In this document: positions 1-5,612 of the stretch, one piece after another
Numbering within the stretch: position 1 is the stretch's first letter
How the letters are laid out: every line of letters starts with the position of its first letter
Virus record (IMG/VR): IMGVR_UViG_2548876695_000002
Coordinates: 1-5,612 of that record
Source of the DNA: a virus
Lineage: Duplodnaviria; Heunggongvirae; Uroviricota; Caudoviricetes
Strand: one strand, 5' to 3'
DNA: 5,612 nt
Translations under genes and position numbers: made by a program
Notes under the pieces: model-generated
What the model saw: only the letters and a program-made list of their open reading frames with translations
What the model was told of the DNA's origin: nothing
Database searches by the model: none

Positions 1-73
1 TTCCATCAGAAACGATGATCTGGCAGCCTGAGTTCACAGATAAAACACTCTCCAGGAAAACCGGGGCGGTTCA
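1..73 (+). mobile_element. Right terminus (IRR) of an IS3-family insertion sequence, IS629-like; element body lies left of the window
   Basis: Plus strand ends ...CCGGGGCGGTTCA at 73. Its reverse complement TGAACCGCCCCGGTTTTCCTGGAGA matches the terminus at 5541 (TGAACCGCCCCGGAAATCCTGGAGA) at 22 of 25 positions, so the two are the paired terminal inverted repeats of one IS type. TGA...TCA termini are typical of the IS3 family. Confidence 0.6.
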
Positions 74-758: not shown

Positions 759-1466
759 TCACGAACTTTTCAGCCACTCCCTTGCCTCGATGTCATCCAG
801 ATGGCGAGATTGCTTCAGAATACCAGCTACATACTCCACCTTTGCTACTTGATGATAAGGCAACGTTATAGGCCTGTGATCCTGGTTAATGCTTGTAAAT
901 TGGTATTCTCCATCTCTGTCATAGCCAAGAACCTTAATCATGTTGTGTCCTTCAACGGTTCTGACAAACACCTCATCACCCGGGAATACTTTGGTGTTAG
1001 GCTCAATGAGTACATATTCTCCTGATTTTATTCTGGGCCACATGCTGTCTCCTTTCACACGAAGACCAAAGGCATCTGGATCATCGCTATAAATTTTGAG
1101 CCACCCATCGCGCTCTTCGGTCATCTCGATGGCACCATCAACACCAAGAATTGCCTCACCAACCACGCGCACTAACCCTTTTTTTAATTTGCCAACAAAT
1201 GAAAGAGTATCTTCATCATTCGCTCCATTTAACGAAGTGCCGTGCTGAAGCCAAACAACATCAACGTTTAGAAATTTCGCAAGCGCATTCATTTTTTCCT
1301 GACGCGGTAAAGACTCAGCATTAAACCATTTGCTAACGCCTTTGGACGAAAGAGAAAGGGCACGGGCTATAGCCATTCCCCTACCATGTTCATCAAGACC
1401 AGCTTCTTTACAGGCTTGCGCTAGCCGCTGGGCGAATTCTTTGCGCACTTTTTCATTCTGAACCAT
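759..1466 (-). CDS. cI: Phage CI-type repressor (N-terminal HTH DNA-binding domain, C-terminal LexA-like S24 peptidase domain)
   Basis: 235-aa ORF. N-terminal HTH region (...GRGMAIARALSLSSKGVSKWFN...). C-terminal domain has GDSMWP (catalytic Ser) and a downstream Lys in ...HNMIKVLGY, the Ser-Lys dyad spacing of LexA/CI/UmuD. Transcribed divergently from cro. Confidence 0.9.
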   Translation of the reverse strand: MVQNEKVRKEFAQRLAQACKEAGLDEHGRGMAIARALSLSSKGVSKWFNAESLPRQEKMNALAKFLNVDVVWLQHGTSLNGANDEDTLSFVGKLKKGLVRVVGEAILGVDGAIEMTEERDGWLKIYSDDPDAFGLRVKGDSMWPRIKSGEYVLIEPNTKVFPGDEVFVRTVEGHNMIKVLGYDRDGEYQFTSINQDHRPITLPYHQVAKVEYVAGILKQSRHLDDIEAREWLKSS

Positions 1467-2236: not shown

Positions 2237-2265
2237 ATTATGACAAATACAGCAAAAATACTCAA
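2237..2265 (-). promoter_or_regulatory. pO-like promoter for the OOP RNA
   Basis: Minus strand TTGAGT (plus 2260-2265), 17-bp spacer, CATAAT (plus 2237-2242); it lies inside the first codons of O, as in lambda. Confidence 0.45.
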
Positions 2266-3178
2266 CTTCGGCAGAGGTAACTTTGCCGAACAGGAGCGTA
2301 ATGTGGCAGATCTCGATGATGGTTACGCCAGACTATCAAATATGCTGATTGAGGCTTATTCAGGCGCAGATCTGACCAAGCGACAGTTTAAAGTGCTGCT
2401 TGCCATTCTGCGTAAAACCTATGGGTGGAATAAACCAATGGACAGAATCACCGATTCTCAACTTAGCGAGATTACAAAGTTACCTGTCAAACGGTGCAAT
2501 GAAGCCAAGTTAGAACTCGTCAGAATGAATATTATCAAGCAGCAAGGCGGCATGTTTGGACCAAATAAAAACATCTCAGAATGGTGCATCCCTCAAAACG
2601 AGGGAGGTTCCCCTAAAATGAGGGACATCCCTCAAAACGAGGGAAAATCCCCTAAAACGAGGGATAAAACATCCCTCAAATTAGGGGATTGCTATCCCTC
2701 AAAACAGGGGGACACAAAAGACACTATTACAAAAGAAAAAAGAAAAGATTATTCGTCCGAGAATTCTGGCGAATCCTCTGACCAGCCAGAAAACGATCTT
2801 TCTGTGGTTAAACCGGATGCTGCAATTCAGAGCGGCAGCAAGTGGGGAACAGCAGAAGACCTGACCGCCGCAGAGTGGATGTTTGACATGGTGAAGACTA
2901 TCGCGCCATCAGCCAGAAAACCGAATTTTGCTGGGTGGGCTAACGATATCCGCCTGATGCGTGAACGTGACGGACGTAACCACCGCGATATGTGTGTGCT
3001 TTTCCGCTGGGCCTGCCAGGACAACTTCTGGTCCGGTAACGTGCTGAGTCCGGCCAAACTCCGCGACAAGTGGACCCAGCTCGAAATCAACCGTAACAAG
3101 CAACAGGCAGGCGTGACAGCCAGCAAACCAAAACTCGACCTGACAAACACTGACTGGATTTACGGGGTGGATTTATGA
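2240..3178 (+). CDS. O: Replication initiator protein O (origin-binding), lambda-like, with a 13-aa insertion encoded by two extra iterons
   Basis: 312-aa ORF with N-terminus MTNTAKILNFGRGNFAEQERNVADLDDGYARLSNML... and C-terminus ...TNTDWIYGVDL matching lambda O as I recall it (lambda O is 299 aa). SD AGGAG at 2230-2234. The extra 13 residues (roughly GSPKMRDIPQNEG) fall in the iteron-encoded linker. Confidence 0.95.
   Translation: MTNTAKILNFGRGNFAEQERNVADLDDGYARLSNMLIEAYSGADLTKRQFKVLLAILRKTYGWNKPMDRITDSQLSEITKLPVKRCNEAKLELVRMNIIKQQGGMFGPNKNISEWCIPQNEGGSPKMRDIPQNEGKSPKTRDKTSLKLGDCYPSKQGDTKDTITKEKRKDYSSENSGESSDQPENDLSVVKPDAAIQSGSKWGTAEDLTAAEWMFDMVKTIAPSARKPNFAGWANDIRLMRERDGRNHRDMCVLFRWACQDNFWSGNVLSPAKLRDKWTQLEINRNKQQAGVTASKPKLDLTNTDWIYGVDL
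2589..2712 (+). repeat. Origin of replication iterons (six O-binding repeats) inside the O gene, followed by an AT-rich unwinding region (2713-2760)
   Basis: Six ~17-18 bp inverted-repeat iterons: TCCCTCAAAACGAGGGA (2589-2605), TCCCCTAAAATGAGGGA (2609-2625), TCCCTCAAAACGAGGGA (2628-2644), TCCCCTAAAACGAGGGA (2648-2664), TCCCTCAAATTAGGGGA (2672-2688), TCCCTCAAAACAGGGGGA (2695-2712). Followed by ACAAAAGACACTATTACAAAAGAAAAAAGAAAAGATTATT. Confidence 0.9.
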
Positions 3179-3876
3179 AAAACATCGCCGCACAGATGGT
3201 TAACTTTGACCGTGAGCAGATGCGTCGAATCGCCAACAACATGCCGGAACAGTACGACGAAAAGCCGCAGGTACAACAGGTAGCGCAGATCATCAACGGT
3301 GTGTTCAGCCAGTTACTGGCAACTTTCCCGGCGAGTCTGGCTAACCGGGACCAGAACGAACTGAATGAAATCCGCCGCCAGTGGGTTCTGGCTTTCCGGG
3401 AAAACGGGATCACCACAATGGAACAGGTTAACGCAGGAATGCGCGTAGCCCGTCGGCAGAATCGACCATTTCTGCCATCACCCGGGCAGTTTGTTGCATG
3501 GTGCCGGGAAGAAGCATCCGTTATCGCCGGACTGCCAAACGTCAGCGAGCTGGTTGATATGGTTTACGAGTATTGCCGGAAGCGAGGCCTGTATCCGGAT
3601 GCGGAGTCTTATCCGTGGAAATCAAACGCGCACTACTGGCTGGTTACCAACCTGTATCAGAACATGCGGGCCAATGCGCTTACTGATGCGGAATTACGCC
3701 GTAAGGCCGCAGATGAGCTTGTCCATATGACTGCGAGAATTAACCGTGGTGAGGCGATCCCTGAACCAGTAAAACAACTTCCTGTCATGGGCGGCAGACC
3801 TCTAAATCGTGCACAGGCTCTGGCGAAGATCGCAGAAATTAAAGCTAAGTTCGGACTGAAAGGAGCAAGAGTATGA
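3175..3876 (+). CDS. P: Replication protein P (DnaB helicase loader), lambda-like
   Basis: 233-aa ORF MKNIAAQMVNFDREQMRRIANNMPEQYDEKPQ... matching lambda P in length and sequence as recalled. ATGA overlap with the O stop at 3175-3178. Confidence 0.95.
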   Translation: MKNIAAQMVNFDREQMRRIANNMPEQYDEKPQVQQVAQIINGVFSQLLATFPASLANRDQNELNEIRRQWVLAFRENGITTMEQVNAGMRVARRQNRPFLPSPGQFVAWCREEASVIAGLPNVSELVDMVYEYCRKRGLYPDAESYPWKSNAHYWLVTNLYQNMRANALTDAELRRKAADELVHMTARINRGEAIPEPVKQLPVMGGRPLNRAQALAKIAEIKAKFGLKGARV

Positions 3877-4163
3877 CGGGCAAAGAGGCAATTATTCATT
3901 ACCTCGGGACGCATAAGAACTTCTGTGCACAGGACGTTTCCGCGGTAACAGGCGCAACCGTAACCAGCATAAATCAGGCTGCGGCTAAAATGGCGCGGGC
4001 AGGAATCCTGATCATTGATGGTAAGGTCTGGCGAACGGTGTATTACCGGTTTGCTACCAGGGAAGAACGGGAAGGAACGGTGAGCACGAACCTGATTTTT
4101 AAGGAGTGTCGCCAGAGTGCAGCGATGAAACGGGTATTGGCGGTATATGGAGTTAAAAGATGA
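3873..4163 (+). CDS. ren: Ren protein (Rex exclusion resistance), lambda-like
   Basis: 96-aa ORF MTGKEAIIHYLGTH...KRVLAVYGVKR, same length and closely similar to lambda Ren as recalled. ATGA overlap with the P stop. Confidence 0.9.
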   Translation: MTGKEAIIHYLGTHKNFCAQDVSAVTGATVTSINQAAAKMARAGILIIDGKVWRTVYYRFATREEREGTVSTNLIFKECRQSAAMKRVLAVYGVKR

Positions 4164-4188
4164 CCATCTACATCACTGAGCTAATGAC

Positions 4189-4220
4189 AGGCCTGCTGGT
4201 AATCGCAGGCCTTTTTATTT
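4189..4220 (+). terminator. Intrinsic terminator, tR2-like
   Basis: 8-bp stem AGGCCTGC (4189-4196) / GCAGGCCT (4205-4212) with loop TGGTAATC, followed by TTTTATTT (4213-4220). Confidence 0.7.
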
Positions 4221-4233
4221 GGGGGAGAGGGAA

Positions 4234-4512
4234 GTGAACGATAGCTACCGACAGTTTGAAAACTGGTGGTCAAAAGACAAAAGCCAGTTCACGGGAGACG
4301 ATGAATTAAAAGAGTTTGCCTGGGTGATATGGCAGGCATCGCGCTCTGCTATTGAACTGGATATCGACTGGCCCGAATCGAATGACGACCTTTGGAAAGA
4401 TGGTGAAGAAGGTGCTTATGCGATGGGTTATGAGGATGGGCGTGACAAAACGGTAATTGCAGTAATGAAAGCCATCAGGGCCGCAGGAATCAAAGAAAAG
4501 AATTTCGATTAA
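4234..4512 (+). CDS. Hypothetical small acidic protein (about 93 aa); start codon uncertain (GTG 4234 preferred over TTG 4219)
   Basis: ORF ...NDSYRQFENWWSKDKSQFTGDDELKEFAWVIWQ...IRAAGIKEKNFD. GGAG at 4224-4227 lies 6 nt before GTG 4234. The TTG at 4219 offered by the ORF track sits inside the terminator T-run and is unlikely. Inserted relative to lambda, where ninB follows tR2 directly. Confidence 0.5.
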   Translation: MNDSYRQFENWWSKDKSQFTGDDELKEFAWVIWQASRSAIELDIDWPESNDDLWKDGEEGAYAMGYEDGRDKTVIAVMKAIRAAGIKEKNFD

Positions 4513-4644
4513 GCAAATATCACTTCAATAAATCGCTTTTAAGGCATCACAATCGCTCTGTGGTGAGGTAAGCACGTGCAAGGCATGCCGATAAGCAGCG
4601 AGAATGAAAAATGCGTCAGAATGCGTTTGAGGAGGTTTTAAGAA

Positions 4645-4860
4645 ATGAGTACGATAGCTGAGCTTGTCAGGGCTAATTTTCGTGAAGAGTTGGTGCGTTG
4701 GTATCGGTATCGTTCATCGTCCAGTTTGCCGCTTGATGAGTTGTATGAGCATTCACCTGCCGCACGACGCTATCCGCGTGACCGTGTTCTTCGACGGTTG
4801 TTCAAACTCAACAATGAGTTTCAGCGCAACAGAATTATCCGGAGTCTGGATTTTAAGTGA
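4645..4860 (+). CDS. Hypothetical 71-aa basic protein
   Basis: Strong SD GAGGAGG (4630-4636) 8 nt upstream of ATG 4645. Arg-rich sequence; family not recognised. Confidence 0.6.
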   Translation: MSTIAELVRANFREELVRWYRYRSSSSLPLDELYEHSPAARRYPRDRVLRRLFKLNNEFQRNRIIRSLDFK

Positions 4861-4870
4861 AGGAGTGAGC

Positions 4871-5041
4871 ATGAGCGACCTATCATTAACCCAGCCAAAG
4901 CTAAAAGAATGTCCGTTTTGCGGCGGTAATGCTCGTCTGTGGGTTGAGGCCGGAATAAATATTGATGTGTGGGGCTATGCAGAATGTGACCTCTGTGAAG
5001 CCAGGGGGGGCATGGGCACCATCAGTTGCTGCGGCGGCTGA
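4871..5041 (+). CDS. Lar-family-like zinc-ribbon protein (restriction alleviation), apparently frameshifted at a G7 tract
   Basis: SD AAGGAG (4860-4865) 5 nt before ATG 4871. CPFCGG-x20-CDLC four-cysteine zinc-ribbon pattern. The frame ends ...GGMGTISCCGG* at 5041, but the other forward frame (codons on 5010, 5013, ...) continues AWAPSVAAAAEKWNRRAGDEANLSASQRSNQK* to 5108 and carries the A-x-x-WNRR motif I associate with Lar-family C-termini. One fewer G in the run 5004-5010 would fuse the two. Confidence 0.5.
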   Translation: MSDLSLTQPKLKECPFCGGNARLWVEAGINIDVWGYAECDLCEARGGMGTISCCGG

Positions 5042-5064
5042 AAAATGGAACCGGAGAGCAGGAG

Positions 5065-5511
5065 ATGAAGCAAACCTTTCTGCTTCGCAACGAAGCAATC
5101 AGAAATAACGCCATAGACGCCATTCTCTCACTACCCATCGACGACAAGTCACCCCACGAAGTCCACGTTAAAGAACCCAAGCGCAGCAAAGCGCAGAATG
5201 ACCGCATGTGGCCGATGCTGAACGATGTTTCGCGTCAGGTGCTATGGCATGGTCAACGGCTGGCGCCGGAAGACTGGAAAGACCTGTTCACTGCCCTGTG
5301 GCTTAAGACCAAAAAACTGGAGCAACGAAGTGTGCCTGGTATCGACGGTGGCGTTGTCATGCTTGGCGTGCGTACCAGCAAAATGCGGAAGGCCAGCATG
5401 ACTGAGCTTATCGAAATCATGTTCTGGTTCGGCTCAGAGCGCAACGTGCGGTGGAGTGATGACTCCTGGCGAGAGTATGAATGGTCACAACGAAAAGGGA
5501 GAGCTGCATGA
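5065..5511 (+). CDS. ninB: NinB (Orf-family recombination protein)
   Basis: 148 aa starting MKQTFLLRNEA... (lambda NinB MKKLTFEIRSP...), with conserved ...DQNRKLW / NDRMWP..., GDVSRQV / NDVSRQV and C-terminal ...EWKARWGDRAA versus ...EWSQRKGRAA. The upstream ATG at 5026 in the ORF track lacks support. GGAG at 5053-5056. Confidence 0.9.
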   Translation: MKQTFLLRNEAIRNNAIDAILSLPIDDKSPHEVHVKEPKRSKAQNDRMWPMLNDVSRQVLWHGQRLAPEDWKDLFTALWLKTKKLEQRSVPGIDGGVVMLGVRTSKMRKASMTELIEIMFWFGSERNVRWSDDSWREYEWSQRKGRAA

Positions 5512-5543
5512 CTATCAAATCAAATACGCCATCACACGACTGA
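5508..5543 (+). pseudogene. First 11 codons of the gene translationally coupled to ninB (ATGA overlap), truncated by the IS insertion
   Basis: ATG 5508 overlaps the ninB stop TGA 5509-5511, the arrangement at the lambda ninB/ninC junction. The reading frame MTIKSNTPSHD terminates at TGA 5541-5543, which is the first triplet of the IS inverted repeat. Confidence 0.4.
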
Positions 5544-5612
5544 ACCGCCCCGGAAATCCTGGAGACTAAACTCCCTGAGAAAGAGGTAAACAGGATGACT
5601 AAAAATACTCGT
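5541..5612 (+). mobile_element. Left terminus (IRL) and 5' end of an IS3-family insertion sequence, IS629-like; element continues beyond the window
   Basis: TGAACCGCCCCGGAAATCCTGGAGACTAAACTCCCTGAGAAAGAGGTAAACAGG-ATG-ACTAAAAATACTCGT matches the IS629 left end and OrfA start MTKNTR as I recall them. Inverted-repeat match to the sequence at 49-73. Confidence 0.75.
5596..5612 (+). CDS. IS3-family transposase OrfA, 5' partial (first 5 codons in window)
   Basis: ATG at 5596 preceded by AAAGAGG. MTKNTR is the remembered N-terminus of IS629/IS1203 OrfA. Only 17 nt fall in the window. Confidence 0.6.

Follow-up and report, generated by a model that had tools for sequence, protein, structure and literature searches.

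The DNA analysed here (the window, 5612 bases in all) carries a restriction-alleviation gene of the Lar family that is broken at a run of seven G residues. This is very probably a genuine, heritable pseudogene allele, sited within a 933W-like Stx prophage in its nin-type early-right region. A reading of the sequence alone had offered three explanations for the interruption: a homopolymer sequencing error, an inactivating frameshift, or slipped-strand on/off switching of an anti-restriction gene. The second of these is supported, and the PGAP annotation treats the locus likewise.

The gene and its neighbourhood

The window corresponds to the immunity, replication and nin-type region of a lambdoid Stx prophage resembling 933W, with the following features:

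759-1466, minus strand: LexA/S24-type repressor gene, with cro-like and cII genes coming next
2240-3178: O
3175-3876: P
3873-4163: ren
4189..4212, plus strand: terminator-like stem-loop with a T tract, of the intrinsic type, upstream of the nin-type gene block
4645..4860, plus strand: DUF7301 gene (Pfam PF23975, 91.4 bits), the second of two small ORFs between the terminator-like hairpin and the Lar-like ORF, lying directly upstream of the latter
4861..4865, plus strand: Shine-Dalgarno sequence AGGAG as read from the sequence, 5 nt upstream of the Lar-like ATG at 4871
4871..5041, plus strand: Lar-like ORF as encoded, from ATG 4871 to TGA 5039-5041, 56 aa: MSDLSLTQPKLKECPFCGGNARLWVEAGINIDVWGYAECDLCEARGGMGTISCCGG
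5004..5010, plus strand: G7 homopolymer, the site of the +1G frameshift
5010..5108, plus strand: displaced 3' part of the Lar gene, (G)AWAPSVAAAAEKWNRRAGDEANLSASQRSNQK, ending in TAA 5106-5108 and containing the W-N-R-R motif conserved in the family
5065..5511, plus strand: ninB, annotated as recombination protein NinB (Pfam PF05772, 165 bits, profile positions 1-131 of 131)

A rho-independent terminator is annotated in the 933W record Y10775.2 at the position equivalent to 4189..4212, and this stem-loop forms part of the context for the probable expression of the Lar-like gene. A promoter and terminator scan of 4100-5612 gave counts at chance level except for this known terminator-like site.

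Prophages of E. coli strains 2011C-4251, SJ7, 99E2750 and UTAK-4 contain the whole window with 100% identity, located in those genomes between two IS3-family copies. The Lar locus (4871-5108, 238 bases) is also 100% identical to phage 933W and to EDL933. The DUF7301-Lar-ninB block moves as a unit between phage mosaics and is kept in 10 of the 10 contexts compared. There are two IS insertions in the window's own prophage, one of which cuts the dam gene just 3' of ninB, which is in keeping with a decaying element.

The positions proposed for the interrupted gene from sequence alone (start at 4871, stop at 5041, run at 5004-5010, alternate stop at 5106-5108, and a 44-nt overlap with ninB) all agree with the sequence. 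The 56-aa product has the zinc ribbon C14-P-F-C17 ... C39-D-L-C42 and ends in a frameshifted tail of 10 residues, GMGTISCCGG, before the TGA. After the run the next frame continues AWAPSVAAAAEKWNRRAG..., as part of an ORF at 4962..5108. Dropping one G joins the two parts into a 78-aa protein with the four-cysteine zinc ribbon at its N-terminus and the W-N-R-R segment at its C-terminus; the restored frame overlaps the first 44 nt of ninB (ATG 5065). In the intact six-G (G6) allele, the codons at the run are AGG GGG GCA, encoding R-G-A. The extra G shifts the frame at codon 46/47, so that the four cysteines are kept and the last 32 residues are replaced by 10 unrelated ones. No other G or C run of 6 or more is present in the window, where about 0.21 runs of seven or more G would be expected from base composition.

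Membership of the Lar family

Both family models separate the two versions of the protein. Against Pfam PF14354 (Lar_restr_allev, cut-off 28.6 bits), the frame-corrected 78-aa protein scores 41.3 bits over profile positions 2-58 of 58, and the encoded 56-aa product scores 25.9 bits over positions 2-33. Against TIGR03655 (cut-off 39.6 bits), the corrected protein scores 62.3 bits over positions 1-55 of 55, and the encoded product 39.3 bits over the first 39 positions. Only the corrected protein passes the two cut-offs, the 56-aa product being below both. By these scores the locus is a Lar-family gene and its encoded product is an incomplete member of the family.

PHROG 599, 'Lar-like restriction alleviation protein', is matched with 135 bits. 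In BLASTP against E. coli K-12 RalR/Lar (from NC_000913.3), residues 11-68 align with 36% identity (E 9e-10). The alignment crosses the shift point and pairs AAEKWNRR with ALERWNKR. C14, C17, C39 and C42 are invariant in an alignment with RalR and a Salmonella homologue. The EKWNRR motif is in frame with the zinc ribbon in G6 alleles; in the window it is not, lying in the next frame after G7. The C-terminus in the alternate frame is thus true homology rather than a chance likeness, since joining the frames raises the scores and the BLASTP alignment spans the shift.

The idea that a zinc-ribbon Lar-family gene has been broken at G7, and that a shift of one base restores the C-terminus of the family, is therefore borne out by the full-profile scores and the RalR alignment. 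The comparison of homologues that had been suggested as a check gives the same answer, with similarity running across the frameshift into the downstream frame both in tblastn against 119 phage records and in BLASTP against RalR.

The relationship to RalR itself is more distant. For the RalR equivalog model NF007260, the corrected protein scores 27.6 bits and the encoded product 18.3, against a cut-off of 113. A blastn search of the window with K-12 ralA found no RalA-like sRNA, giving only chance matches of 9-10 nt. The Rfam scan of the window at gathering thresholds, whose models need not include RalA, returned no RNA family. The Pfam, NCBIfam and PHROG scans gave Lar-family models only and no match to Ral.

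Allele frequencies

The G6 allele, with its 78-aa product, is the ancestral and common form and G7 is in the minority. In tblastn with the 78-aa protein, the gene is uninterrupted in nearly all of the 119 phage records, and matches in two pieces come only from the 933W-type records and Min27. The Lar-like gene is present in about 490 complete E. coli genomes; an exact G6 36-mer is found in 326 E. coli records at 416 places, and an exact G7 67-mer in 23 of 491 E. coli complete-genome records. When IMG/VR viral contigs were scanned with a pattern that allowed any 4-10 bases where the run sits, 97 copies emerged, of which 73 have G6, 20 have GGGTGG and 4 have G7. The GGGTGG variant, which encodes Arg-Val and interrupts the run, thus makes up about 20% of the IMG/VR copies. 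Exact product look-ups placed the intact 78-aa protein on at least 1000 public contigs and the exact 56-aa product on 812.

The count of G residues across homologous prophages, another of the checks proposed, accordingly reveals a run of variable length in which six is modal and seven is infrequent (23/491 and 4/97). The frequency of G7 is about 4-5% of copies in both complete E. coli genomes and IMG/VR. It is the commonest disabling lesion in the unbiased IMG/VR set, accounting for 4 of the 6 disrupted copies there.

Origins and stability of the G7 allele

The G7 allele adjoins at least five replication modules, these being O/P with two immunity regions (lambda-type), O with DnaB, a Toprim primase, and a DnaC-like ATPase. 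Alignment of 106 copies of the common 870-bp DUF7301-Lar-ninB block, a sample enriched for G7 by design, gave 53 haplotypes outside the run. At least 14 of the 53 haplotypes carry G7. Three of the 870-bp flanking haplotypes are common to G6 and G7 carriers exactly, and most of the G7 groups have a G6 neighbour 0-1 differences away. At least four G7 groups each have two or more separate assemblies behind them:

the window / O45:H2 type
the EDL933 type
the L032/L110 type
the L103/L107/L006/L108 type

In the four-gamete test, 24 of the 36 informative SNPs are incompatible with the state of the run, and 178 of 630 SNP-SNP pairs (28%) fail by comparison; these background failures reflect real recombination within the block.

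Repeated origin of G7 by slippage (+1G) is the simplest and most likely reading of these sequences, because there are at least four well-supported haplotype groups and at least five mosaic contexts. Homopolymer error may lie behind some of the G7 calls in draft or long-read assemblies, which would inflate the apparent number of independent origins. Candidates for such error are the G7 calls in Korean chicken isolates, where several other genes nearby are annotated as partial or frameshifted.

Within lineages the allele is unchanged among the isolates compared. All EDL933 stocks have G7, and so do O157:H7 isolates from three countries (the USA, New Zealand and Japan); those from New Zealand and Japan share flanking protein alleles with EDL933. 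One G7 copy, L100, has a second indel. A sequence of 239 nt (H21) that had been considered as a G8 allele was rejected as such, being G7 with an extra T.

The pseudogene reading can be set out as a sequence of steps. The extra G would have arisen by replication slippage on the homopolymer, the G6 run acting as a mutational hot spot. G7 is seen on several flanks that match G6 haplotypes exactly or almost exactly, and after its origin it is passed on stably. By analogy with the family, antitermination would allow the intact protein to be expressed from the pR transcript at an early stage of lytic growth, and its role would be to help unmodified phage DNA to escape type I (EcoKI-class) restriction. 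To our knowledge, restriction alleviation has been shown within this family for Rac Lar alone. Phages with G7, including the inducible 933W and Min27, would do without Lar, which would make the gene dispensable.

A phase-variable switch

The G run occupies codons 45-47, and its length determines which of three different products is made: one from G5 or G8, one from G6 or G9, and one from G7. In exact look-ups of the predicted products, with run lengths deduced from protein rather than DNA sequences, the in-frame 79-aa protein of G9 is on 10 contigs, the 213-aa products of G8 on 6 and 2 contigs, and the 212-aa product of G5 on 2 contigs. Those of G5 and G8 come from Logan automatic assemblies only and could include errors. 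Since ninB is read in the third frame after the run, and that frame is open, they are in-frame Lar-NinB fusions.

It is on these observations that a contingency locus could be proposed, in which the G run is a slipped-strand on/off switch of an anti-restriction (or toxin-like) gene, perhaps with three outputs: intact Lar from G6 or G9, a truncated zinc ribbon from G7, and the Lar-NinB fusion from G5 or G8. Products fitting every length from G5 to G9 are in public assemblies, all three frames are open for a meaningful distance past the run, G7 has several apparent origins, and it leads the disabling lesions in IMG/VR (4 of 6 disrupted copies). However, the run is of 6-7 G with a mode of 6, and high-frequency phase variation typically involves runs of 8 or more. 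Nor is the tract maintained, with GGGTGG (R-V) in 20 of 97 copies and different residues at the position of the run in a Salmonella homologue of 49% identity. G7 is fixed in all EDL933 stocks and among isolates of one lineage from places far apart, indicating slow change; it accounts for just 4-5% or so of copies, and the G5, G8 and G9 products are rare, with 2-10 contigs each.

A contingency locus therefore seems unlikely, the run being short and unconserved in relatives. Of the earlier suggestion of slipped-strand switching, what stands is that the run varies in length (products of G5 to G9) and that G7 seems to be recurrent; the short, unconserved and stable run speaks against a switch. It is distinctly unlikely, too, that the same three states, with G7 giving a bare zinc-ribbon peptide, form a switch operating at low frequency. 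If they did, slippage would diversify the expression of an anti-restriction (or DNase-toxin) gene, and perhaps the translation of ninB, across a phage or lysogen population, and a phase-variable phage anti-restriction gene would be a counterpart of the phase-variable restriction-modification systems of hosts. Ordinary decay of a gene seems a better description of the locus than switching.

The truncated product

An AF2 model of the intact protein, of moderate confidence (mean pLDDT 74) and built from a shallow alignment of 6 close relatives, has two strands (21-27 and 33-39), then a short bridge (45/49) and a helix (52-75). In this model the four cysteines are before the shift point, and the bridge or last strand and the helix, with W59-N-R-R62, lie past it. 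Compared with the PDB by Foldseek, the model had no significant match; the lowest E-value was 0.29, to dsRBD-like folds. The PDB sequence search found only a weak resemblance to the eL43/L37ae zinc ribbon (E 0.009).

The 56-aa product is probably inactive, since it has lost part of the domain that is conserved from Rac Lar/RalR to this protein. It retains all four zinc ligands and could have kept or gained some activity. That the peptide is functional, whether by a new or a partial function, and that G7 persists for this reason in lineages such as 933W, is very unlikely. The four Cys ligands are accompanied by the first two strands, the allele is widespread (812 contigs) and viable phages, 933W and Min27, carry it. 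On the other hand, the lost segment contains the best-conserved C-terminal motif of the family, one G7 copy (L100) has acquired another indel, and neutral loss in a dispensable accessory gene predicts persistence equally well.

Recoding

A peptidyl tRNA-Gly slipping from GGG 5006-5008 to 5007-5009 would re-pair perfectly and yield exactly the G6 protein, and the run resembles a Shine-Dalgarno sequence. Some full-length Lar might then be made from G7 by +1 ribosomal slippage (tRNA-Gly on G-GGG-GGC), or else by transcriptional slippage. This is highly improbable as an explanation, given that about 95% of homologues are in frame and the shift is not conserved. The A-site codon GGC, common in E. 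coli, is neither slow nor a stop codon, and there is no separately placed stimulator of the prfB kind. Efficient transcriptional slippage is usually linked to longer runs than G7. The features of a programmed +1 frameshift of the prfB type are thus absent from this site, which has GGC in the A site, no stop codon, and homologues that are in frame in about 95% of cases, and programmed recoding is unlikely. Low-level +1 leakiness of the G7 allele may nonetheless occur, since the sequence would permit the perfect re-pairing.

Sequencing error

Homopolymer miscounts are frequent, several other genes near G7 are partial or frameshifted in some carrier assemblies, and the old 933W record Y10775.2 annotates an intact orf7 of 237 nt, but it is barely credible that the true state is G6 and the gene intact, since Y10775.2 itself has G7 and G7 is reproduced in record after record. 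The allele is found in AF125520 / NC_000924 (933W), in CP111102, in CP008957 (EDL933) and in CP124741/2 (a Chinese EDL933 stock), the 933W and EDL933 records being separate deposits and not necessarily independent determinations. It is found as well in ATCC 43894 and its derivative strain 277, in Min27, in the ENA metagenome contig L105 and, as the exact 56-aa product, on the 812 contigs. The error proposed as one of the three explanations is rejected on this recurrence.

Y10775.2 had been considered as an independent G6 state of 933W and was discarded. Its 'intact' ORF arises because the G4 run further upstream (4971-4974) is one G shorter, which compensates for the G7. The ninB gene is split into two ORFs in the same record, which suggests local errors there.

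Significance

RefSeq/PGAP labels the gene 'Lar family restriction alleviation protein, frameshifted' in EDL933, in 2011C-4251 and at every G7 RefSeq locus inspected. A comparative study includes lar among the characterised accessory genes of Stx phages (PMC3430580). The frameshift was therefore already known at the level of annotation. A literature search found no paper on this frameshift or on a phase-variable phage anti-restriction gene. What is added here is the exclusion of error, the frequency of about 4-5%, the evidence that G7 arose repeatedly at a slippage hot spot, and the three-frame behaviour of the run. Nothing in these results is surprising for so short a homopolymer in an accessory phage gene that is dispensable, and their significance beyond annotation hygiene is slight.

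In 933W, the reference Stx2 phage, and in a minority of related prophages the Lar-family gene is a dead copy, and most Stx phages have an intact one. This is relevant to the use of 933W in studies of host range or restriction evasion. The pseudogene also accounts for conflicting database entries: a 119-aa 'Lar-like' ORF call, the 'intact' orf7 of Y10775.2 and the 'frameshifted' pseudogenes of RefSeq. The G run can conveniently serve as a natural marker for a hot spot of slippage, and would be of biological interest only if population sequencing showed high-frequency switching.

Comparison with known systems

Rac Lar/RalR of E. coli K-12 belongs to the same Pfam and TIGRFAM family, is likewise borne by a prophage, and shares the CPFCG...CxxC ribbon and the A-x-E-[RK]-W-N-[RK]-R motif. 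Restriction alleviation and modification enhancement were attributed to Rac Lar by King and Murray (1995), as cited in PMC4041452. RalR was later described as a DNase toxin whose antitoxin, in a type I system, is the sRNA RalA (PMC4041452). The present gene lies elsewhere, in the nin-type region with the replication genes on one side and ninB on the other, whereas RalR is next to recET. It also differs in that its protein is not an equivalog, no RalA-like sRNA was found in the window, and the gene is frameshifted.

Ral of phage lambda enhances the methylation of unmodified DNA by type IA enzymes (review PMC12707154). The two share a proposed role as early, non-essential alleviators of type I restriction, and the likeness is functional only.

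The contingency genes of Haemophilus, Neisseria and Campylobacter likewise have poly-G within the coding sequence, where length polymorphism alters the frame. In contrast to these, the present run is short (6-7), unconserved in orthologues and unchanged among the isolates compared within a lineage.

A further comparison is with the intact 78-aa Lar-like protein of Stx phages (VT2-Sakai, BP-4795, 2851 and others), which is encoded by the same gene at 99.6% nucleotide identity. These copies have the same DUF7301-Lar-ninB order, either G6 or GGGTGG at the run, and an ORF that ends 44 nt inside ninB. The window differs from them in having G7 and the premature stop at 5039-5041.

Alleles of the G run

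The intact Lar-like gene carries six G residues at the run in 5004-5010, where the window has seven. The third reading frame 3' of the run is open into ninB (window 5004-5511) and, because of this, alleles with five G residues would be predicted to encode an in-frame Lar-NinB fusion of 212 aa, and those with eight a fusion of 213 aa. Exact protein-level matches to the predicted fusions are found in Logan assemblies (2, 6 and 2 contigs).

Approximately 20% of the IMG/VR copies of the locus (L011, L016, L017, and others) have GGGTGG at the equivalent of 5004-5010, which breaks up the homopolymer and codes for Arg-Val where the run codes for Arg-Gly. A frameshift at the run site was present in none of the 20 GGGTGG copies from IMG/VR.

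Conflicting records and ORF annotations

Some database entries give a different picture of the locus. The old phage 933W record (Y10775.2; copy L002, about 1601-1604) has G3 vs the G4 at window 4971-4974, which offsets the G7 and generates a seemingly intact orf7. In the same record ninB is divided into two ORFs. Sequencing errors in Y10775.2 probably account for both the G3 and the split of ninB. A 119 aa 'Lar-like' protein (P0022; window 4664-5041), also linked to a phage 933W source, starts upstream, within the DUF7301 gene and in a different frame; its ORF was called on the frameshifted allele and is over-extended. The copy in O45:H2 strain FWSEC0003 (L100; NZ_CP031916.1, about 3091-3096) has the G7 plus an extra T (ATATTTGATG) and is the same pseudogene; the extra T may be a second lesion or may come from an error in the assembly.

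Genomic context

One feature is found in the interval from ren to the small ORFs 5' of the Lar-like gene:

4189-4212, strong intrinsic terminator-like hairpin followed by a T tract

For the equivalent of this hairpin, Y10775.2 has the annotation rho-independent terminator. From its position upstream it follows that the Lar-like gene would depend upon antitermination for its expression.

Both ends of the window (1-73 and 5540-5612) are IS3-family termini, similar to IS629/IS1203. On the left is an inverted repeat ending ...CCGGGGCGGTTCA, with its last base at 73, and on the right is TGAACCGCCCCGG, from 5540, followed by the start of the transposase, ATGACTAAAAATACTCGT. In matching genomes, two IS copies flank the stretch equivalent to the window. 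The phage N-6-adenine methyltransferase gene dam usually starts at an ATGA that overlaps the ninB stop codon (window 5508-5539); here, the right-hand IS interrupts it after about 11 codons and the remainder is annotated by PGAP beyond the IS. The interrupted dam adds a second lesion to the prophage region that carries the Lar-like frameshift.

Relationships of the intact Lar protein

A Salmonella homologue with an overall identity of only 49% shares all of the final 16 residues of the intact protein (AGDEANLSASQRSNQK; window 5060-5108). We think that the tail is shared because the DNA encoding it also contains, in another frame, the conserved 5' end of ninB. The tail would then result from that overlap and would not be a feature conserved in Lar itself.

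A further resemblance, which was not confirmed by a Foldseek search, is to eL43/L37ae, the eukaryotic and archaeal ribosomal zinc-ribbon protein. Residues 7-56 of the restored protein (window 4889-5040) have weak similarity to it (phmmer E 0.009; Pfam Ribosomal_L37ae E 0.019), reaching past the second CxxC and through the adjoining 'GAW'.
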